The translations under genes and the position numbers were made by a program. The notes below the pieces were generated by a model, which was not told the DNA's origin, made no database searches, and worked only from the letters and a program-made list of their open reading frames with translations. Positions 1,683 through 10,278 of a DNA stretch of 64,000 nucleotides are shown here, piece by piece (the stretch's first letter is position 1; each line of letters opens with the position of its first letter). Source of the DNA: Candidatus Levyibacteriota bacterium (lineage in GTDB: Bacteria; Patescibacteriota; Microgenomatia; Levybacterales; UBA12049); the NCBI GenBank assembly GCA_043823085.1, contig JBDRBE010000004.1, positions 269,992-333,991 on the forward strand, written 5' to 3'.

Positions 1683-1765
1683 GGGTCGGTGGCGGAACTT
1701 GGTATACGCGTACGGTTTAGGACCGTATCCCGAAAGGGTTGGAGGTTCGATTCCTCTCCGACCCA
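1683..1765 (+). tRNA. tRNA-Leu(TAG) with long variable arm
   Basis: Acceptor gggtcgg/ccgaccc, anticodon loop ttTAGga, variable arm tcccgaaaggg, T loop ggttcgattcc. Confidence 0.75.
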
Positions 1766-1895
1766 CAGGATAAAGGGTTCACTTGCCCGCCCGAAGTGCA
1801 CCTTGAGCTGTATACAAATAGTATTGAAAAGGCGAAAGGGAAACGGAGCGGAGGGAGTCCCTTCGTCCGCACAGCATACTTTAGGAATTAAAATT

Positions 1896-2723
1896 ATGAT
1901 ATCTGCAATCGAAAAAATTGAAGACGGAACAATTAAGCTGACAATAACCGTACCTTTTCTTGAGGTTAAAAAAGCCAGAGAAAAGGTAATAGAGAATATT
2001 GCAAAAAACACCGATATTAAGGGATTTAGAAAAGGCAAAGCTCCTAAAAAATTGGTTGAAGAAAAAGTTGATGAAGAGAAAGTCAGAGAAGAAATTCTTA
2101 AAATTCTTCTTCCCGAAAGCTATTTAAATGCTGTTAAAGAACATGATTTAAAACCAATCATGAATCCTAAAATTCAGGTTACGTCGCTTGAAAAAGACAA
2201 AGATTGGCAATTTATCGCTTTTACTTGCGAGCTTCCAAATATTGACCTTGGAGAATATAAAGAGAATATCGGGAAAATTACAGCCAAAACAAAAATAATT
2301 ATTCCTGGAAAAGAAGCCCAAAAACCTCATTTTGAAGAGATAGTAACTGCACTTTTGAAAAGTGTTTCTGTTAAAATTCCAAAAATTCTTCTCGACGGAG
2401 AAGTCGAAAGATTGCTTTCACAAACGCTTGACGAAATAAAAAAACTCGGGCTTAATCTTGACCAATATTTAATGTCAACGGGTAAAACCGCTGAAACTTT
2501 ACGAGCCGAGTATGAAAAAAAAGCTGAAAATGATCTTAAGTTTGAATTTGCGCTTCAAAAAATCGCCGATATTGAAAAAATTACAGTCAGCGAAGAAGAG
2601 ATTAACGAGGCAATTCATAAAGCCAAGGACGAGAATGAAAGAAAGAACCTCGAAAAAAACCGTTATCTTTTGGCTGGAATTTTAAGACAGCAAAAAACCC
2701 TTGATTTTTTAAAAAACTTGTGA
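1896..2723 (+). CDS. tig: trigger factor, short form (N-terminal ribosome-binding domain with GFRKGKAP motif, plus C-terminal domain; PPIase domain apparently absent)
   Basis: MISAIEKIEDGTIKLTITVP...GFRKGKAPKKLVEEK is characteristic of the trigger factor N-domain. Start taken at the ATG after RBS-like aggaatta; the ORF track entry begins upstream inside the tRNA-Leu. Confidence 0.75.
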   Translation: MISAIEKIEDGTIKLTITVPFLEVKKAREKVIENIAKNTDIKGFRKGKAPKKLVEEKVDEEKVREEILKILLPESYLNAVKEHDLKPIMNPKIQVTSLEKDKDWQFIAFTCELPNIDLGEYKENIGKITAKTKIIIPGKEAQKPHFEEIVTALLKSVSVKIPKILLDGEVERLLSQTLDEIKKLGLNLDQYLMSTGKTAETLRAEYEKKAENDLKFEFALQKIADIEKITVSEEEINEAIHKAKDENERKNLEKNRYLLAGILRQQKTLDFLKNL

Positions 2724-2738
2724 TAAGGTGAGGCCTAT

Positions 2739-3383
2739 ATGGCAGATAAAAAAACAAAAAAACAAAAAAAACAATTTATTAATAAAAATGCCGTTGAGGC
2801 CTTACAGGATGTAGGCGGAGGAATTGCAACAGCTGTCAAAAATGATGTGGCCAAAGGCATGATGACTGATCTTTGGGATCAATTTTTGGGCGCTGATAAA
2901 TACAAACAAAGCACAAAAGAAAGCGGAGACCTACAAGAAGGAGAGGAATTAAACCTTAGCGCAAAAAAAGACCAAAAAGAAGAACCTGCGGAAAAAACGC
3001 TTCCCGGACTTGATTATCAAAGAGAAATTCTTCACGGAGAAAGAAGAGTAATTGAAGAAAACAAGCAAGCTATTGAAGTCAAAATACAGGAAATTATTAT
3101 TGAAATTAAAAAACTAACAGCACAGTCCAAAGAACTGCAAGCCCAGTTTAAAGAAATTACTGTAGAAATACTCCCTGTAAATCCTGGCCAATACCATTTG
3201 AACTTTTTTGAATGGATGATTTTAACTATACGACAAGCCCGCATGAAAGTCGAAGATTCGGCGAGTTGGCTAGCTTTGTTTACCAGTAAAAAAGGGAAAA
3301 AGGAATACTGGGCAATGTTCAAAAAACACGGAACAACATTTGGTCTCTCCAACGAACGCGTGGTAGCCACCCAAACCGGCTAA
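2739..3383 (+). CDS. hypothetical protein, Lys/Glu-rich N-terminus, predicted coiled coil
   Basis: 214-aa ORF with housekeeping-like codon usage. No recognisable motif. Confidence 0.5.
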   Translation: MADKKTKKQKKQFINKNAVEALQDVGGGIATAVKNDVAKGMMTDLWDQFLGADKYKQSTKESGDLQEGEELNLSAKKDQKEEPAEKTLPGLDYQREILHGERRVIEENKQAIEVKIQEIIIEIKKLTAQSKELQAQFKEITVEILPVNPGQYHLNFFEWMILTIRQARMKVEDSASWLALFTSKKGKKEYWAMFKKHGTTFGLSNERVVATQTG

Positions 3384-3390
3384 TTGCTTC

Positions 3391-3420
3391 TTGACAAACA
3401 ACTGATTCGAAGAATATAAT
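3391..3420 (+). promoter_or_regulatory. sigma70-like promoter TTGACA-18-TATAAT
   Basis: ttgacaaacaactgattcgaagaatataat. Confidence 0.5.
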
Positions 3421-3431
3421 TTCAATAGAGC

Positions 3432-3565
3432 ATGAAAAAATCTTTATTAACCCTTACCATTACTATGCTCCTTTAAGAGGAGTTGAAATGGTTTGGGAGA
3501 GTAAAGAAGTTTCAAAATAACCAAATCAGTAATGTTTAATCTCCCAAACTTGGGAGATTTTTTTA
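3432..3565 (+). promoter_or_regulatory. putative leader region: 14-codon ORF (MKKSLLTLTITMLL), 10-codon ORF (MVWESKEVSK), intrinsic terminator, and a mutually exclusive antiterminator pairing
   Basis: Terminator ctccc-aaactt-gggag followed by 7 T (3541..3564). gtttgggag (3491..3499) is the exact complement of ctcccaaac (3541..3549). Confidence 0.4.
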
Positions 3566-3575
3566 TGGAGGAGAT

Positions 3576-3815
3576 ATGGAATTTGAAGTTTGTCCTGTAT
3601 GTAAACCTTTAACTTGTGAACGTTCATGCGCGGTTAGAGACGGAATAAATGGGTCTTCCAGAGCATGCAATGATAAGTGTACATTAGAAATAGAGTTTCG
3701 TGGTGGCGTCGAAACTATCGTTTGGACATGTAAAAAAGCCGCGTGCCATGCAAGAAAAGAAGCAATAAAAGCCCATAAAGAACATATTGTTTTCTCACGC
3801 ACGGCCACCGCCTAA
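3576..3815 (+). CDS. small Cys-rich protein (8 Cys, CxxC...CxxxC...CxxxC pattern), possible zinc ribbon
   Basis: 79-aa ORF starting 4 nt after GGAGGAG. The overlapping antisense ORF 3563..3808 is the alternative reading. Confidence 0.4.
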   Translation: MEFEVCPVCKPLTCERSCAVRDGINGSSRACNDKCTLEIEFRGGVETIVWTCKKAACHARKEAIKAHKEHIVFSRTATA

Positions 3816-3876
3816 AAAAGACAATAAAAAATTCAAACTTGACAAATTAGGACAATTTAGATTAAAAATATAAAAT

Positions 3877-4653
3877 ATGCCAGAAACAGGAATCGGAGTC
3901 TTAGAAAAGCCTAAACTACCTCACCCGACCCATGAAATTGCCGCTTATTATACAGGGAAATATAACAGCGCGGAAAAATCAGATAGTCCAGAACTCGCGA
4001 GAATCAATCTTATAAAAATGGCTTTTCCTTATCTTTTGTCATTTAGACAAAGCGACAGAGTATTAGATATAGGAGCAGGAAAACAAATTTTAGAAAGGCA
4101 GCTTAGAAATTACTTTAAAAATAAGGCTGGAAGGCCACTTCAAATACCAATAGTAACTCTTGACGTAGCAAATATTAAGTATAGAAAGTTACTGGAAAAA
4201 AAACAAAAAAATATCCACCATGTATTAGCAAGGAGTGAAAAACTCCCAATTCCAGATGAAAGTATAGCCTTAGTAATTTCAAGCATGGCCTTGGATTTAA
4301 TGCCTGACGAAGCAATTGCTGAAGTTTTTCGAGTTTTGAAACCCTGCTCTCACGCTCTGATAACTCTCCATCATCCGGCGCTGATTCCAAATGATCTTGA
4401 AGAATTATTGAAGAAACAGAATGTTAGAGCAAGCGAAAGAAGAGTTTATGAAATTTGGGACTACCTTATCAAGAATCAGAAACTTTCAAGCGATATGAAT
4501 ACAATAGCAAACAGATTAAATAAATATGGCTTCAATATAGCAACTATTAATGAAGCACGCGACGAAAAAGATACATGGTGGGAGATAGATTTAATCAAAC
4601 CAGAAAAAGCTGATGAAAATAATCTGTGGGCTCAAGAGGAGTCGAACCTCTGA
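3877..4653 (+). CDS. class I SAM-dependent methyltransferase; the 3' end reads into a tRNA-Val fragment
   Basis: Motif I VLDIGAGKQ, motif post-I/II region DESIALVISSMALDL, motif III FRVLKP. The last ~9 codons are encoded by tRNA-like sequence (tgggctcaagaggagtcgaacc). Confidence 0.6.
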   Translation: MPETGIGVLEKPKLPHPTHEIAAYYTGKYNSAEKSDSPELARINLIKMAFPYLLSFRQSDRVLDIGAGKQILERQLRNYFKNKAGRPLQIPIVTLDVANIKYRKLLEKKQKNIHHVLARSEKLPIPDESIALVISSMALDLMPDEAIAEVFRVLKPCSHALITLHHPALIPNDLEELLKKQNVRASERRVYEIWDYLIKNQKLSSDMNTIANRLNKYGFNIATINEARDEKDTWWEIDLIKPEKADENNLWAQEESNL

Positions 4654-4677
4654 CCTTTACAATGTCAATGCAACGCC
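4627..4677 (-). pseudogene. tRNA-Val 3' fragment (anticodon arm through 3' end) duplicated next to the complete tRNA-Val
   Basis: Minus-strand sequence gcgttgcattgacattgtaaaggtcagaggttcgactcctcttgagccca parallels the 3' two-thirds of the adjacent tRNA-Val with several substitutions. Confidence 0.6.
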
Positions 4678-4692
4678 CCGCCTGCCTTGCTG

Positions 4693-4766
4693 TGGAGTTG
4701 ACAGGATTCGAACCTGTGACCTTTGCAATGTCAATGCAACGCTCTAACCAACTGAGCTACAACTCC
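4693..4766 (-). tRNA. tRNA-Val(GAC)
   Basis: Minus strand ggagttgtagctcagttggttagagcgttgcattGACattgcaaaggtcacaggttcgaatcctgtcaactcca. Full cloverleaf. Confidence 0.8.
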
Positions 4767-4780
4767 AAATACGGCGGGCA

Positions 4781-4806
4781 GGTCTAACCAACTGAGCTAT
4801 GAGCCC
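4781..4806 (-). pseudogene. tRNA 5' fragment (acceptor plus D arm: gggctcatagctcagttggttagacc) whose acceptor strand matches the 3' fragment at 4627..4677
   Basis: gggctca pairs with tgagccc of the 3' fragment. The complete tRNA-Val lies between the two fragments. Confidence 0.5.
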
Positions 4807-4869
4807 TAAAATAACATTTAAATTTTAACAGATAAGAGTAAATCGAGCAAGATTAAGAATTTAAACTTT

Positions 4870-4921
4870 ATGAAAAAGATAATTTTAGCCTCTGCCTCTC
4901 CCCGAAGAAAAGAATTGTTAA
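4870..4921 (+). repeat. 52-bp direct repeat, copy 1 (duplicate of the maf 5' end; copy 2 at 5881..5932; 3 mismatches)
   Basis: atgaaaaagataattttagcctctgcctctccccgaagaaaagaattgttaaa versus atgaaaaagataattttagcctctgcctctcctcgaagagaagaattgttaaa. Confidence 0.85.
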
Positions 4922-5748
4922 ACTCTCTGTGGTGTTGGTGGAGGAAATACACTTTCTCCGCGGGGTGAGTTTGCAACCTTTATAACCGCATTTTTATCCA
5001 GCCGAAGTGTAAGAGCATAAGAAACCTTAGGAATGCCATCCTGAGGTCTTGGCTTATATTCAACTATCGTGGCAGATACTCCTGAAAGATTAGTTGCAAG
5101 ATCACCTACCCAACCATTCTGTTCGCTACTTTCACTAACATGATGCCATTTTTGATTCCTTCTGGCAAGGTTGATTAACAAAGGTAATGTAGCTCTATCC
5201 GTAAGCAAACCAATTCTTTTAAGCACTGGTTCTAATACCGAAGGATCTGTATGATCAAGTAAATAAAGATAATCACGAGATTGAAATGAGCCTGGGGTCT
5301 TTAGTTCATCTTGAAAAACGTCTTCTACGCCTGCAGGTTTTCCTTCCAATTCTCTTTCCACCTGAATTTTTTCAACCATCTCATGTATGTCATCTGCCAT
5401 CTTACGCAAGTTTTGACTTTTTCCACATAACATCCTTCTACGCTCATCACCTTCAGGAAATCCTTCAGCAACTTCATATAAAATATTATCTAACACTTCT
5501 ACTGGACTTTCTGCCAATTTTTCTTCTACTTCTCGTCTTGCCCTTTCTCCTGCCATCCTAGCAACATCAGCAATTACCCTACGTTGTTCTCGAGGAATAT
5601 CTAGTCCTATTGTTGGGACTATAATCTGTGCTTTTGTTCGCAACTCTGCTCTACGGGCTGAATCGCCCTTGGTATGTCGATTTATACGAGATTCCACTTG
5701 TTGGAGAGATGGTCTTGATCCTACTTCAGATCTTGGCTCACCATTCAT
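4918..5748 (-). CDS. hypothetical protein (276 aa) on a GC-enriched insertion; distant paralog of 21776..22441
   Basis: Long ORF with visibly higher GC than flanks. Shares N-terminal M-N-E-P..GSR and C-terminal YAL...RGE..PPP segments with the 221-aa protein at 21776..22441. Confidence 0.6.
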   Translation of the reverse strand: MNGEPRSEVGSRPSLQQVESRINRHTKGDSARRAELRTKAQIIVPTIGLDIPREQRRVIADVARMAGERARREVEEKLAESPVEVLDNILYEVAEGFPEGDERRRMLCGKSQNLRKMADDIHEMVEKIQVERELEGKPAGVEDVFQDELKTPGSFQSRDYLYLLDHTDPSVLEPVLKRIGLLTDRATLPLLINLARRNQKWHHVSESSEQNGWVGDLATNLSGVSATIVEYKPRPQDGIPKVSYALTLRLDKNAVIKVANSPRGESVFPPPTPQRV

Positions 5749-5880: not shown

Positions 5881-6462
5881 ATGAAAAAGATAATTTTAGC
5901 CTCTGCCTCTCCTCGAAGAGAAGAATTGTTAAAAAATATCGGATTGAAATTCAGCGTTGAGCCAAGCAACTTAGATGAGAACATGACGCTAAATCTAAAA
6001 CCAGCTAAACTTGCTGAATTTTTATCATTCCAAAAAGCTAAAACCGTGGCCAAAAAATATAAAAATTCGATTATTATTGCCGCCGACACAATCGTTGTAA
6101 TCGGAAATGATATTTTAGGAAAAGCGCATACTGACAAAGAGGCAAAACAGATGTTAAATAAACTGAATGGAAAATCTCACTTGGTAATTACCGGATTTAC
6201 AATTATCGATAGCAATACAAATAAAAAAGTAACCAAATCCGAAAAAACAAAAGTATTCTTTAAAAAACTCAATGCACATGAAATAGATAATTATATAGCA
6301 ACAGGCGAACCGGTAAAAAAAGGAGGGGCGGGATCGTATTGCATTCAGGGTTTTGCCTCGATGTTTATAAAAAAAATTAAAGGAGACTATTTTAATGTTG
6401 TCGGCCTGCCGATATATTCGCTTATGGAATCTCTAAAAAAATTTGGCATCAAAGTTTTGTAA
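5881..6462 (+). CDS. maf: Maf-like nucleotide pyrophosphatase (septum formation protein Maf)
   Basis: N-terminal IILASASPRR with downstream conserved Maf/Ham1 motifs; 193 aa. Confidence 0.8.
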   Translation: MKKIILASASPRREELLKNIGLKFSVEPSNLDENMTLNLKPAKLAEFLSFQKAKTVAKKYKNSIIIAADTIVVIGNDILGKAHTDKEAKQMLNKLNGKSHLVITGFTIIDSNTNKKVTKSEKTKVFFKKLNAHEIDNYIATGEPVKKGGAGSYCIQGFASMFIKKIKGDYFNVVGLPIYSLMESLKKFGIKVL

Positions 6463-6469
6463 AATCAGC

Positions 6470-6498
6470 TTGACATGATGGTTGCAAAGTGATAAAGT
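6470..6498 (+). promoter_or_regulatory. promoter TTGACA-17-TAAAGT upstream of the thrS leader
   Basis: cttgacatgatggttgcaaagtgataaagt. Confidence 0.4.
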
Positions 6499-6511
6499 TA
6501 AAATTATCAAT

Positions 6512-6559
6512 ATGAAAAAATTTGATTTAAAAAAAACTACTACTACCTTTTCCTTCTAG
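6512..6559 (+). promoter_or_regulatory. 15-codon leader ORF MKKFDLKKTTTTFSF with four consecutive Thr codons
   Basis: atg aaa aaa ttt gat tta aaa aaa act act act acc ttt tcc ttc tag, read directly. Confidence 0.5.
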
Positions 6560-6585
6560 TGGGGGGTGGTAAGTTTGTGAAATAA

Positions 6586-6610
6586 AACCTCCCAATAGGA
6601 GGTTTTTTTG
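6586..6610 (+). terminator. intrinsic terminator cctcc(c)-aata-ggagg followed by T7, within the thrS leader
   Basis: aacctcccaataggaggttttttt. The upstream G-run tggggggtgg can pair with cctccc instead, forming an antiterminator. Confidence 0.55.
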
Positions 6611-6732
6611 TGTACATTTGAAAATTTATGAATAGCACACAATCCGTCTAAAAGCGCTCTTCGAGACAAGTCTGACTTGCTCGAGAAGTAAGCTTAGATG
6701 GATGTGTTAAATTCTGATATAATATAAAAATT

Positions 6733-8463
6733 ATGAGAAGTAAACAAATAGACAATCGTCTACAAATAATGAGACACTCATGCGCTCATCTTTTGGCTGC
6801 AGCAGTTTTGAAACTGTATCCAGACGTAAAACTTGGAATGGGACCTGCAATTGACAATGGGTTTTATTATGATTTTGAGTTTAAAAATGTAATTTCAAAA
6901 GATGATCTTCTAAAAATCGAGGAAGAAATGTTAAAGATTAAAAAAAAATGGAAGAAATTTGAACACTTTACAAAATCAGTTAACGAAGCCAGGGAAATTG
7001 AAAAAAACCAGCCATACAAATTAGAATTAGTCAGAGAACTTGCAAAACAAAATAAAAATTTTTCTTTTTACAAATCCGGTGATTTTGTTGATCTTTGCCT
7101 TGGACCGCACGTAAAAAATGCTAAAGAAATCGGCGCTTTCAAACTTACTTCAATTGCCGGCGCCTACTGGAAAGGCAATGAAAAAAACCCAATGCTGACA
7201 AGAATATACGGCATATGTTTTAAAACTCAAGAAGAATTAAATAAATATCTTTCCCAAAAATTACTGGCCAGTAAAAACGACCATAAAAGAATAGGCAGCG
7301 AGCTTGATCTTTTTAGCTTTCATCCGGAAGCTCCCGGATTTGTTTTCTGGCATGCGAATGGACAAAGGATGCGAAAACCGCTGGTAAATTTCTGGCAGAA
7401 AATGCACGATAAAGCAGGGTATGAAGAGGTTTCGACCCCCATTCTTCTTTCCGAAGAGCTTTGGAAAAAATCAGGCCACTGGCAGAATTATAAAGATAAG
7501 ATGTACTTTACTAAAAAGGAGAACAAAACACTTGCCCTAAAACCGATGAATTGCCCCGGAATGATGTTAATTTATAAGAATAATCCGCATTCTTACAAAG
7601 AGTTACCTATCAGATGGAGAGAGCTTGGGCTAGTTCATCGTCATGAACCATCCGGAGTTTTAAACGGATTGCTTCGCGAAAGAGCTTTTCGCCAGGATGA
7701 CGCTCATATTTTCTGTCAGGAAAATCAAGTTGAAGAAGAAGTTAAAAAGATTGTAAAATTGGAGCTTGAAATTTATTCTGCTTTCCACTTTGAAAAAATT
7801 CGTATTGAATTATCCACTCGGCCAAAAAAATCTATAGGTACAAGCAAAATGTGGAATACGGCTGAAAAAATTCTAAAAAAAGTCTTAAAAGATTTAAAAT
7901 TAGATTATGATATAAGCGAAGGCGAAGGAGCGTTTTACGGTCCTAAAGTTGATTTTCACTTAACTGATTCTCTGGATCGACCCTGGCAGTGCGGAACGAT
8001 TCAGGTGGATTTTGCTATGCCAAGTCAATTTGATTTAATATATATTGATAAAGATGGAAGTAAAAAATGTCCGGTTATGATCCATCGGGCTGTTTTTGGT
8101 TCATTTCATAGATTTTTCGGCATACTTATTGAACACTACGGAGGAGTGTTCCCTTTATGGCTTGCTCCGGTGCAGGTAAAAATTATTCCGATTACAGATG
8201 GGCAAAAAGACTTTGGAGAAATTATTTTGGAGCTTTTCCGAGGAGAAGGTATTAATGTTGACTTTGACGATAGATCAGAAACAATGCAAGCCAAAATCAG
8301 AGATGCCACTTTACAAAAAGTACCTTATATGGCTATAATAGGGGATAAGGAAATTGCAACGAACAGTGTTTCGGTCCGAACCAGAGATGGAAAAAATCTC
8401 GGAGCGATGAGAGTTTCGGAATTTTTACAAAAGTTAAAAGAAGAAATTGATAAAAAGATTTAG
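6733..8463 (+). CDS. thrS: threonyl-tRNA synthetase (short form, N-terminal TGS domain absent)
   Basis: HSCAHLL zinc motif, DHKRIGSELDLF, class II core motifs, C-terminal anticodon-binding domain. Confidence 0.9.
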   Translation: MRSKQIDNRLQIMRHSCAHLLAAAVLKLYPDVKLGMGPAIDNGFYYDFEFKNVISKDDLLKIEEEMLKIKKKWKKFEHFTKSVNEAREIEKNQPYKLELVRELAKQNKNFSFYKSGDFVDLCLGPHVKNAKEIGAFKLTSIAGAYWKGNEKNPMLTRIYGICFKTQEELNKYLSQKLLASKNDHKRIGSELDLFSFHPEAPGFVFWHANGQRMRKPLVNFWQKMHDKAGYEEVSTPILLSEELWKKSGHWQNYKDKMYFTKKENKTLALKPMNCPGMMLIYKNNPHSYKELPIRWRELGLVHRHEPSGVLNGLLRERAFRQDDAHIFCQENQVEEEVKKIVKLELEIYSAFHFEKIRIELSTRPKKSIGTSKMWNTAEKILKKVLKDLKLDYDISEGEGAFYGPKVDFHLTDSLDRPWQCGTIQVDFAMPSQFDLIYIDKDGSKKCPVMIHRAVFGSFHRFFGILIEHYGGVFPLWLAPVQVKIIPITDGQKDFGEIILELFRGEGINVDFDDRSETMQAKIRDATLQKVPYMAIIGDKEIATNSVSVRTRDGKNLGAMRVSEFLQKLKEEIDKKI

Positions 8464-9581: not shown

Positions 9582-9926
9582 ATGGCGAGAATTAAAAGGG
9601 GAGTAGTGTCCCGAAGAAAGCATAAAAAATTACTGGGCAAAACAAAAGGTTTTCGCGGAACAAAAAGCAAACTGACAAGAGTCGCTCACGAAGCGGCTTT
9701 ACACGCGGGGGCTTATGCGTATCATGGAAGAAAGATTAGAAAAAGAGATTTTCGCGCTCTTTGGATAACCAGAATTAGTGAAGCTGTAAAACCCCAAGGC
9801 ATTTCCTACAGTGTTTTTATGAATCAATTAAAAAAAGCAAACATTGAGCTGGATAGAAAAATTTTAAGCGATCTTGTTTTAAATGATCCGGCAACTTTTA
9901 AAAAACTTGTTGCATCTGTAAAGTAA
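9582..9926 (+). CDS. rplT: 50S ribosomal protein L20
   Basis: MARIKRGVVSRRKHKK...RDFRALWITRI, canonical L20. Confidence 0.9.
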   Translation: MARIKRGVVSRRKHKKLLGKTKGFRGTKSKLTRVAHEAALHAGAYAYHGRKIRKRDFRALWITRISEAVKPQGISYSVFMNQLKKANIELDRKILSDLVLNDPATFKKLVASVK

Positions 9927-9985
9927 ATCTGATATAATTATTTTTAATATGAAACAATCTAGCAATGTAATCATCTTTGGTTTCT

Positions 9986-10012
9986 TTTTTACTTCCCAGA
10001 CCGGGAGGTTTT
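9986..10012 (+). terminator. intrinsic terminator cttccc-agacc-gggagg + T5
   Basis: Read directly after rplT. Confidence 0.5.
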
Positions 10013-10042
10013 TAATGTCTTAAAAAAATAAAAGACAAAAAG

Positions 10043-10068
10043 AACAACCTCCCGAGAAGGGAGGTTTT
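10043..10068 (+). terminator. intrinsic terminator cctccc-gagaa-gggagg + T6
   Basis: aacctcccgagaagggaggtttttt. Same style as the terminator at 6586. Confidence 0.6.
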
Positions 10069-10092
10069 TTAATGGCAAAGGAGGTGAATTAT

Positions 10093-10278
10093 ATGAGTAA
10101 ATCAGAGTGTTTACAATTAAAAACTGGTAGCTGTATGGGATGTAGTGTCTTAGAGATAGTTTTACGAAAAGGAAGAGAAGGACAAGTTGACGATATTGCT
10201 AAAAGAGTTGGCAAAAGTCTTTGCCCTGAGGGAATGCGACCAAGGGCTATATCGAAACCGAAACGTAAAATGTGGTAG
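10093..10278 (+). CDS. small hypothetical protein (about 61 aa; CMGC motif); start 7 nt after AAGGAGGTG
   Basis: Strong Shine-Dalgarno sequence with good spacing. The ORF track begins at the in-frame upstream ATG 10072. Confidence 0.45.
   Translation: MSKSECLQLKTGSCMGCSVLEIVLRKGREGQVDDIAKRVGKSLCPEGMRPRAISKPKRKMW

Follow-up and report, generated by a model that had tools for sequence, protein, structure and literature searches.

A predicted leucine leader-peptide attenuator with exchanged cargo genes in Candidatus Levyibacteriota

The classical attenuators of enterobacteria, which we compare here from textbook knowledge, are the leu leader (leuL; Rfam Leu_leader) and those of trp, his, thr, ilv and pheA. 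They combine a short open reading frame (ORF) rich in cognate codons, a rare Leu codon among them, with mutually exclusive 1:2, 2:3 and 3:4 helices and a terminator before the first gene. Outside Proteobacteria, leucine-dependent attenuators have been inferred from the same feature set in the ilv-leu operon of Staphylococcus aureus, where a nonsense mutation in the Leu-rich leader peptide relieves repression (PMC5794164), and in front of actinobacterial leuA and ilvB (PMC1262725, PMC11857589). Translation of the Salmonella mgtA and mgtCBR leader ORFs alters stem-loops and controls transcription into non-biosynthetic genes (PMC3641672), and the trpL leader of Sinorhizobium meliloti has a role beyond its own operon, with rnTrpL and peTrpL acting in trans (PMC7968998, PMC7298713). 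Here we analysed a stretch of 64,000 nucleotides (nt) of a Candidatus Levyibacteriota genome (contig JBDRBE010000004.1; the whole stretch is called the window). Positions 3391-3566 of the window belong to a conserved family of leader-peptide transcription attenuators, with members at 14 further loci in Levyibacteriota-like genomes of the candidate phyla radiation (CPR). We consider it likely that this element is a ribosome-mediated attenuator, most likely sensing charged tRNA-Leu, which is orthologous to the leuA attenuator of relatives and has had its downstream genes (hereafter cargo) swapped. To our knowledge, almost nothing is known about gene regulation in CPR bacteria (Patescibacteria). 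A full-text search of one literature collection found no paper on leader-peptide attenuation in them, an absence that is not proof.

The leaders of this family have in common sequence features, homology, synteny, alternative folds, an enrichment of Leu codons and some covariation. A short contig (L001) that carries a homologue of the methyltransferase gene of the window has a recognisably homologous leader and terminator, the leader being an incomplete, 5'-cut copy. Species-representative genomes were scanned with the terminator sequence, followed by metagenomes. The genome scan returned CP066685.1 (L032), a Candidatus Levyibacteriota chromosome with a homologous leader, and the metagenome scan returned ten further leaders, one before leuA (L122), one before ilvE-leuA-leuC (L151) and eight before other genes. 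Of the 119 terminator-pattern matches in genomes, most were unrelated terminators from other phyla. A covariance model (R1) built from 12 leaders gives 94–155 bits for the 13 complete leaders, with 130 bits for the window copy and 68 bits for the 5'-cut L001, and picked up an additional genome copy (L100). Found family-wide are a TTGACA-type promoter, a nearly leaderless Leu-rich mini-ORF, a long 1:2 hairpin, the antiterminator strand GUUUGGGAGA and the terminator AAUCUCCCAA..GGGAGAUUUUUU. Specifically, the L032 leader encodes the peptide MKTNQNILLTIDLLLTEI, ended by a stop codon, and has a TTGACA promoter, the same terminator and a stretch, ATGGTTTGGGAGA, identical to that of the window. The neighbouring DUF5660 proteins are 45–61% identical and the threonyl-tRNA synthetases (ThrRS) 56% identical; nonetheless the leaders retain the −35 and −10 elements, the ORF and every helix regardless of cargo, which argues that they are probably under selection whatever the type of cargo. 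Besides these leaders, eleven metagenome contigs (L125, L126, L130, L131, L135, L137, L140, L143, L153, L156 and L157) have the same terminator preceded by GGTTGGGAG, A or G, and TTTTTT; in several of them a conserved ORF starting MSWDG follows, and they look like a different class of leader or element.

The genomic site is shared as well. The syntenic order is a 186-amino-acid (aa) protein, tRNA-Leu(UAG), trigger factor (tig), DUF5660, the leader, the cargo, tRNA-Val(GAC), a conserved unannotated protein of ~200 aa, thrS and infC. The cargo consists of leucine or branched-chain amino acid (BCAA) genes in L032, L122 and L151, of a methyltransferase of one family (30–51% identical) in the window, L001 and L127, and of unrelated genes, mostly orphans but including an S9-like hydrolase and a nucleotidyltransferase, in L100, L129, L132, L138, L147, L152, L154 and L159. 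In L032, the leader stands directly before a gene for 2-isopropylmalate synthase (595 bits vs a cut-off of 532), followed by ilvD, ridA, leuC, leuD, leuB and tRNA-Val. In L001, the leader and terminator stand directly before the methyltransferase gene, followed by tRNA-Val, the unannotated 200-aa protein and thrS. tRNA-Val follows the cargo also in L127, L129, L132, L147 and L154. In L147, the leader has ilvB, ilvA and ridA just in front of it, yet is followed by an orphan. No leu genes were found in the 64-kb window by tblastn with IlvC, LeuA, IlvD, RidA, LeuC, LeuD and LeuB of L032, the sole match being an unrelated RidA at 60398-60748. The stretch 3560-3880 was considered as a decayed piece of a leucine operon and rejected, with no tblastn match to the L032 proteins there. 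The simplest history is inferred to be an ancestral leader with a leucine operon, the genes of which were repeatedly replaced, in at least ten loci by unrelated cargo; genes landing between the leader and tRNA-Val would inherit leucine-starvation control.

Two side observations concern the loci with leucine genes. In L122, an rve-type integrase (insertion-sequence transposase; 2-895) lies immediately upstream of leader-leuA, where most other loci have DUF5660. LeuA of L032 (890-2032) is only 380 aa long and aligns to positions 4-382 of a profile with 516 positions, its C-terminal part missing. In other enzymes this part is the leucine-binding feedback domain, so attenuation may be the only leucine control of this LeuA.

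The promoter of the window copy (Table 1) fits the consensus at 12 of 12 positions and is the sole perfect match within 2600-5200. Among 13 family members, the −35 element is exactly TTGACA at the same place in 12 and TTGACT in L100. A TATAAT-like −10 hexamer 16–18 nt downstream of the −35 element was matched by pattern in 11 leaders, L138 and L100 being unmatched. The −10 hexamer and the leader ATG are 7–12 nt apart in the family, so the leader ORF is predicted, from this spacing and a predicted start site, to be leaderless or nearly so. The leader ORF of the window, mini-ORF1, contains 5 Leu, 3 Thr and 1 Ile in 14 codons (Leu 36%, binomial P = 0.008), the Leu codons being UUA at 3444 and 3447, CUU at 3453, CUC at 3468 and CUU at 3471. 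An earlier annotation made from the letters of the window (the sequence-only reading) had described the same TTGACA-18-TATAAT promoter, a Leu/Thr/Ile-rich first mini-ORF of 14 codons, a second mini-ORF of 10 codons and a clean intrinsic terminator, all of which are recovered here, with promoter and terminator conserved in the family.

Leu makes up 27.8% of the 13 leaders, compared with 9.7% of the window genes, and CUC accounts for 29 of 70 Leu codons in the leaders, compared with 6.4% of Leu codons in the window genes (~18-fold enriched). At aligned Leu positions, the synonymous codons UUA, CUC and CUU alternate among leaders. The leader ORF is 14–28 codons long in the family, and in 9 of 12 complete relatives its stop codon directly adjoins the strand GNUUUGGGAGA, preceded by U, C or G. 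Because the ORF is Leu-rich in 13 leaders and the same leader precedes leuA or ilvE-leuA operons in three relatives, mini-ORF1, rather than mini-ORF2, is the likely sensor.

The leader RNA folds with −46.9 kcal/mol (z = −4.75), and none of 200 shuffled sequences folds as well. In the minimum-free-energy fold, the region of mini-ORF1 and mini-ORF2 forms a single long hairpin (regions 1 and 2), a feature absent from the sequence-only reading. In its apical stem, Leu codons CUC-CUU pair with the GAGGAG that precedes mini-ORF2 (family form CUCCUC, loop, GAGGAG), and the stop codon UAA of mini-ORF1 (3474-3476) is the triloop in the window copy. The sequence GTTTGGGAGA is invariant across the 12 aligned leaders. 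Downstream, the terminator is present in all family members, with a GC-containing 9-bp stem located between the leader ORF and the first structural gene. The region 2 strand has two alternative partners, the 5' portion of the leader ORF (1:2) and the 5' arm and loop of the terminator (2:3). Specifically, GTTTGGGAG (3491-3499) is the exact reverse complement of CTCCCAAAC (3541-3549), and A3500:U3540 extends the pairing to 10 bp. As isolated duplexes, the antiterminator has −17.6 kcal/mol and the terminator arms −12.5 kcal/mol. This exact 9-nt complementarity, which the sequence-only reading had pointed out, is confirmed, and the 9-mers have no other occurrence on either strand of the 64-kb window (0.37 expected per 64 kb).

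The ribosome footprint on the window leader was modelled with the transcription start assumed at 3427 and the transcript ended at 3550, before the terminator 3' arm. With the A site on any Leu codon (3444, 3447, 3453, 3468 or 3471), 10 of 10 antiterminator pairs form. With no ribosome, with a ribosome at the stop codon and with a ribosome initiating on mini-ORF2, 0 of 10 form; in the model, the terminator forms in these three states after its 3' arm is transcribed. Thus folding with and without a ribosome footprint, a check suggested by the sequence-only reading, separates stalled from unstalled states (10/10 vs 0/10 antiterminator pairs). Consistent with the window model, the free RNA of 12 of 12 aligned leaders folds as the 1:2 hairpin and the terminator, and the antiterminator forms in 12 of 12 when region 1 is masked and the transcript is ended before the terminator 3' arm.

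The structure of 1:2 hairpin and terminator has 74.8% of cells paired in the alignment, compared with 42–55% when the partners are slid. The covariation score is 0.166, compared with 0.114 in shuffles (0 of 500 as high), and both sides have changed in 7 of 10 pairs of the outer helix. In an alignment-free test, region 2 pairs better with its own region 1 than with that of other leaders (p = 0.008). RNAalifold on a MAFFT alignment returned only the apical hairpin and the invariant antiterminator, and the 1:2 helix needed model-based realignment.

Table 1. Features of the leader and its downstream cargo in the window
Feature	Start	End	Strand	Description
Sigma-70-type promoter	3391	3420	+	TTGACA 3391-3396, 18-nt spacer, TATAAT 3415-3420
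Leader peptide ORF (mini-ORF1)	3432	3476	+	MKKSLLTLTITMLL and stop codon; 14 codons
Region 1, 5' strand of long hairpin	3441	3473	+	includes UCUUUAUU, CCC, CCAUUA and GCUCCUU; from minimum-free-energy folds
Region 2, 3' strand of long hairpin	3477	3513	+	core GUUUGGGAGA (3491-3500) is the antiterminator strand
Mini-ORF2	3488	3520	+	MVWESKEVSK and stop codon; 10 codons; GAGGAG at 3477-3482, 5 nt before AUG
Intrinsic terminator	3538	3566	+	9-bp stem, 3538-3546 with 3551-3559; loop AACU; U7 at 3560-3566
Region 3	3540	3549	+	UCUCCCAAAC; alternative partner of region 2
79-aa ORF with 8 Cys	3576	3815	+	orphan; coding status doubtful
Class I SAM-dependent methyltransferase gene	3877	4653	+	258 aa; very small family
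Split tRNA-Val(GAC), right boundary	4618	4812	−	D arm broken between GA and GC by a 122-nt insert

These features suggest the following mechanism. The strong promoter would start a nearly leaderless transcript, and a ribosome would translate the Leu-rich mini-ORF1. When region 1 is free of ribosomes, it would pair with region 2, the terminator would form and transcription would stop before 3576. A ribosome stalled at a Leu codon (3444-3473) would mask region 1, and GUUUGGGAGA would pair with UCUCCCAAAC before the terminator 3' arm exists; with the antiterminator formed, RNA polymerase would continue into the Cys-rich ORF and the methyltransferase gene. Completed translation of mini-ORF1 would bring termination back. 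In most family members, the stop codon adjoins region 2, and a terminating ribosome would mask that strand. The stop of the window copy comes 14 nt earlier, and termination would then require region 1 to re-pair in the wake of the ribosome, ribosomes to re-initiate at mini-ORF2 (GAGGAG, 5 nt, AUG), or the two together.

Several points weigh against this mechanism or limit its reach. In the window leader, TAA at 3474-3476 is premature, four codons early and 14 nt upstream of the antiterminator strand, and is unique among the 13 leaders; the site of the leader stop of L032 and L001 reads AAA. An independent Logan assembly (L002) is 100% identical to the window across 1712-4662, and the premature stop is therefore not an error of one assembly. 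The energy gap between footprint states is small (−16.1 kcal/mol for a stall at 3468 vs −16.8 kcal/mol for a ribosome at the stop codon), and in full-length RNA most masked states revert to the terminator. The enrichment of CUC is partly imposed by its pairing with GGAG. The alignment behind the pair counts was itself fitted to the covariance model. The sequence-only reading had proposed looking for the 9-nt complementarity in relatives; it is invariant in the 12 aligned leaders, but the search patterns required the antiterminator and both terminator arms, so the 2:3 and 3:4 arms are fixed in the sample, and the sole independent variant of the 2:3 pairing is that of L001 (GGC..GGGAG vs CUCCCAAGCC). 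Downstream genes handle the cognate amino acid in L032, L122 and L151 (leuA, ilvD, leuCDB, ilvE), and in the window they do not. Transcription start, stalling, termination or read-through, regulation and the working state of the copy are all predicted from sequence, structure and comparison. By analogy to the nonsense mutation in the S. aureus leader, the window copy may be partly derepressed or decaying. Alternatively, it may be functional through re-pairing of region 1, or through re-initiation at mini-ORF2 in place of masking by the ancestral stop. The energy differences are too small to choose between a working and a partly derepressed copy.

The premature stop also bears on a less probable explanation, namely that the element is a relic left after loss of the leucine operon, leucine control having been abolished by the stop and only the promoter and a terminator of the upstream tig-DUF5660 transcript remaining in use. 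It fits with the presence of the premature TAA in the window copy alone among 13 leaders, with the derepression of the S. aureus attenuator by a similar mutation (PMC5794164), with a cargo that has no link to leucine synthesis and with the lack of any other terminator between the DUF5660 stop (3383) and 3538. We regard it as unlikely, because in the window copy no helix has been lost, five Leu codons remain and the promoter is perfect, with 130 bits against the family model, because the Leu-rich leaders are still full-length, despite deep divergence, at ten other loci whose cargo is not leucine-related, and because modelled footprints still distinguish stalled from unstalled states in this copy. 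Somewhat less likely again is that translation of mini-ORF2 is itself the switch, with a ribosome on 3488-3520 covering the antiterminator strand and choosing between termination and read-through, as proposed in the sequence-only reading. Mini-ORF2 has a good Shine-Dalgarno sequence and the antiterminator strand lies within it. Under a modelled footprint at its start (3476-3503), none of the 10 antiterminator pairs forms and all 9 terminator pairs do, and a ribosome initiating there would thus favour termination; in L032, L138, L147 and L154, a TAATG stop-start overlap likewise opens a short ORF across the antiterminator strand. However, mini-ORF2 has no run of any single codon and thus offers nothing obvious to sense, and the 3' arm of the apical hairpin doubles as its Shine-Dalgarno sequence, which would make its translation dependent on mini-ORF1. 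Across the family, the corresponding ORF has 5–10 codons, starts with ATG, GTG, TTG or has no start, lies in differing frames and is missing from L129 and L001. What is conserved is the RNA strand and the Leu-rich upstream ORF, and most of mini-ORF2 is simply the conserved antiterminator strand seen as codons. The alternative of terminator and antiterminator in the sequence-only reading is real, while the sensor is probably mini-ORF1, and a helper or masking role of mini-ORF2 specific to the window copy is possible.

Retention after loss of the operon would also be accounted for if the ~140-nt terminated leader transcript or its peptide acted in trans, as described for rnTrpL and peTrpL (PMC7968998, PMC7298713). 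The strong promoter, stable structure (z = −4.75) and efficient terminator would yield an abundant small RNA, and the element is kept before at least ten unrelated cargos. This idea is improbable in our view: there is no known or predicted target, the best-conserved parts are precisely those that attenuation in cis needs, and a small-RNA role leaves the enrichment of Leu codons unexplained. A protein-independent riboswitch or a tRNA-sensing T-box leader would share the architecture of terminator and antiterminator, and in the window copy the antiterminator strand is immediately preceded by UGG. However, UGG is replaced by UUG, ACG or GUG in relatives, there is no conserved core resembling a ligand pocket, and the conserved Leu-codon ORF with its stop adjoining region 2 is a hallmark of ribosome-mediated attenuation. 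In the window, every Rfam family stays below its gathering score (best on the leader, Phe_leader with 27.7 bits vs 55), and in the relatives Rfam gives nothing for the Leu leader, the only match being Phe_leader with 38.7 bits on another leader of L152. Matches with E up to 1 in the window and relatives include no T-box or SAM riboswitch, and both identities were rejected; a leader of this kind is extremely unlikely.

Of the two ORFs behind the terminator, the second encodes a class I S-adenosylmethionine (SAM)-dependent methyltransferase, as the sequence-only reading had recognised. The assignment rests on Pfam domain scores (Methyltransf_11, 33.7 bits vs a cut-off of 21.2; Methyltransf_25, 29.6 vs 27) and a Rossmann-like fold. 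The predicted fold is closest to small-molecule methyltransferases (Foldseek E ~1e-8 to MitM, PE N-methyltransferase, Coq5 and JHAMT). None of the named equivalogs (BioC, UbiE/MenG, ArsM, RlmA) reaches its NCBIfam cut-off, the best being BioC with 37.7 bits vs 184.95, and a search for a specific function by PDB sequence search, NCBIfam and fold search returned only generic or small-molecule methyltransferases. Codon usage is native-like (0.200 per codon). The single candidate for an internal promoter (AGGACA, 16 nt, TAAAAT; 3849-3876; 9/12) was rejected, as its start would fall within the ORF.

The profile search with the methyltransferase that the sequence-only reading had proposed gives a family of five sequences among 5.8 billion proteins, three of which lie behind this leader: that of the window, P0003 (L001, 51% identical) and P0004 (L127). 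P0005 (L161, 251-1258) is 42% identical over 84% of the window protein; the gene directly after it is leuS (a 77-aa fragment with 116.9 bits to leuS_bact), and there is no Leu-type leader in the 250 nt before P0005. P0006 has 520 aa and matches with E 7.6e-13 over half of the query. Other matches are generic, many labelled arsenite methyltransferase or UbiE, and an alignment scan of GTDB species representatives found no relative. Together, the four loci are suggestive of an association of this methyltransferase family with leucine.

The first ORF, with 8 Cys, is doubtful as a gene. Its codon log-odds of 0.059 lies below the 5th percentile of true genes (0.159) and within the range of off-frame windows (95th percentile 0.105), and it is overlapped by an antisense ORF of comparable length and score. 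Its GC content is 0.42, compared with 0.37 for the window, and a Shine-Dalgarno sequence precedes it. Only the ORF itself was found among 5.8 billion proteins (word-indexed search) and 1.84 billion representatives (exhaustive phmmer). Pfam and NCBIfam, including zinc-ribbon and known Cys-rich families, gave no family, and tblastn gave no phage or plasmid match. The AlphaFold2 model has a predicted local distance difference test score (pLDDT) of 61 and no significant fold match (best Foldseek E 0.02). L001 and L127 lack the ORF, their methyltransferase gene coming straight after the terminator. Kinship with small Cys proteins behind other leaders (window 10093-10278; L154) was considered and rejected, as it is unlike both. 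It is possibly a recent insertion or a new gene, the translation of which is putative. Thus the Cys-rich mini-protein of the sequence-only reading is present as an ORF with 8 Cys and may be no gene, and the profile search proposed for it yields no relatives. The small regulated accessory operon suggested there holds in so far as accessory cargo lies next to tRNA-Val.

A tentative and rather speculative proposal follows from the exchange of cargo: the leucine attenuator outlived its operon and became a starvation-induced "expression socket" at a hypervariable DUF5660/tRNA-Val site, behind which lineage-specific genes land, and the methyltransferase acts on the leucine branch of translation. The landed genes would be a rare methyltransferase, small Cys-containing proteins, a nucleotidyltransferase, an S9-like hydrolase and many orphans. 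They would be switched on when the symbiont is short of charged tRNA-Leu, i.e. when host amino acids are scarce, and the target of the methyltransferase might be, for example, tRNA-Leu, leucyl-tRNA synthetase (LeuRS) or a leucine-derived metabolite. If the attenuator still works, it would be a testable handle on how reduced, host-dependent bacteria adjust expression under amino-acid starvation. The leader would also place a set of orphan genes, and a methyltransferase family with five known sequences, in a functional context for the first time.

At the right boundary of the cargo, the stop codon of the methyltransferase gene falls inside a tRNA-Val half, in agreement with the sequence-only reading, which had placed the block next to tRNA-Val scars. 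The 122-nt insert in this tRNA holds a second complete tRNA-Val(GAC) (4692-4766) and is flanked by GC-rich complementary 10-mers, CCUGCCCGCC and GGCAGGCGGG, with 9 of 10 pairs. The outer tRNA-Val forms a perfect cloverleaf once the insert is removed, and the predicted fold of the whole keeps the outer arms, a bridging helix and the inner cloverleaf. Instead of simple scars, this arrangement may represent a nested, intron-like or split tRNA. Further along, the 5' end of maf (MKKIILASASPRREELL) is duplicated at 4870-4920 and 5881-5930, with an orphan 276-aa ORF on the minus strand (4918-5748) between the copies, which suggests an insertion with a duplicated target beside the tRNA-Val site.

Other leaders of similar design were noticed in the neighbourhood. 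Window 6470-6611, before thrS, has a TTGACA promoter, an ORF (6512-6559; MKKFDLKKTTTTFSF and stop) with four consecutive Thr codons and a terminator at ~6586-6610; L001 has a thrS leader of the same design at 1855-1995 (MRKLAKINGTTTTDPS and stop). By its sequence, this leader looks like a threonine leader-peptide attenuator of threonyl-tRNA synthetase. A Phe-rich leader after rplT (9910-10071; ORF 9949-10023, MKQSSNVIIFGFFFTSQTGRFLMS and stop; terminator ~10046-10071) scores 39.7 bits with R1 and is followed by a 61-aa Cys-containing protein (10093-10278), a 92-aa ORF, pheS (10663) and pheT (11725), an arrangement that resembles rplT-pheM-pheST of Escherichia coli. The 61-aa protein and that of L154 (1858-2067, minus strand) each lie immediately behind a leader terminator (Phe and Leu, respectively), have CxGC spacing and CPEGM[RQ]P in common and match no Pfam family. 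In L032, an Ile/Thr-rich leader (MNKNQIITITTIPS and stop) with a terminator (7743-7874) precedes a gene that by eye resembles threonine dehydratase (ilvA), a fourth attenuator type in this lineage. The lineage thus appears to use ribosome-mediated attenuation widely (leu, thrS, pheST, ilvA), with leaders that are leaderless or nearly so and none of which is in Rfam.

The window leader resembles the classical enterobacterial attenuators in its ORF of cognate codons, its exclusive helices and its terminator before the first gene, and orthologous copies in relatives would control leuA. It differs from the enterobacterial leu leader in being leaderless or nearly so, in having scattered CUC, CUU and UUA codons instead of a run of CUA, in a stop codon within a triloop and in non-biosynthetic cargo; Leu_leader has no match with E up to 1 in the window, nor is there sequence or covariance-model similarity. 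The S. aureus and actinobacterial attenuators belong to other phyla, have no detectable sequence relationship to it and precede BCAA operons only. In function, the closest analogy for the window cargo is that of the Salmonella mgtA and mgtCBR leaders; unlike the window leader, these are long and combine several signals, they do not derive from an attenuator of a biosynthetic operon, and no swapping of cargo has been described for them. S. meliloti trpL offers a possible reason for retention through a function in trans, which is known there and for which the window leader gives no evidence. The unusual course of evolution here is that of a biosynthetic-operon attenuator under purifying selection, its cargo exchanged for unrelated genes in many lineages. 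Compared with these described systems, what appears to be new is the phylum, the leaderless design and, above all, the persistence of an attenuator while its cargo is exchanged.

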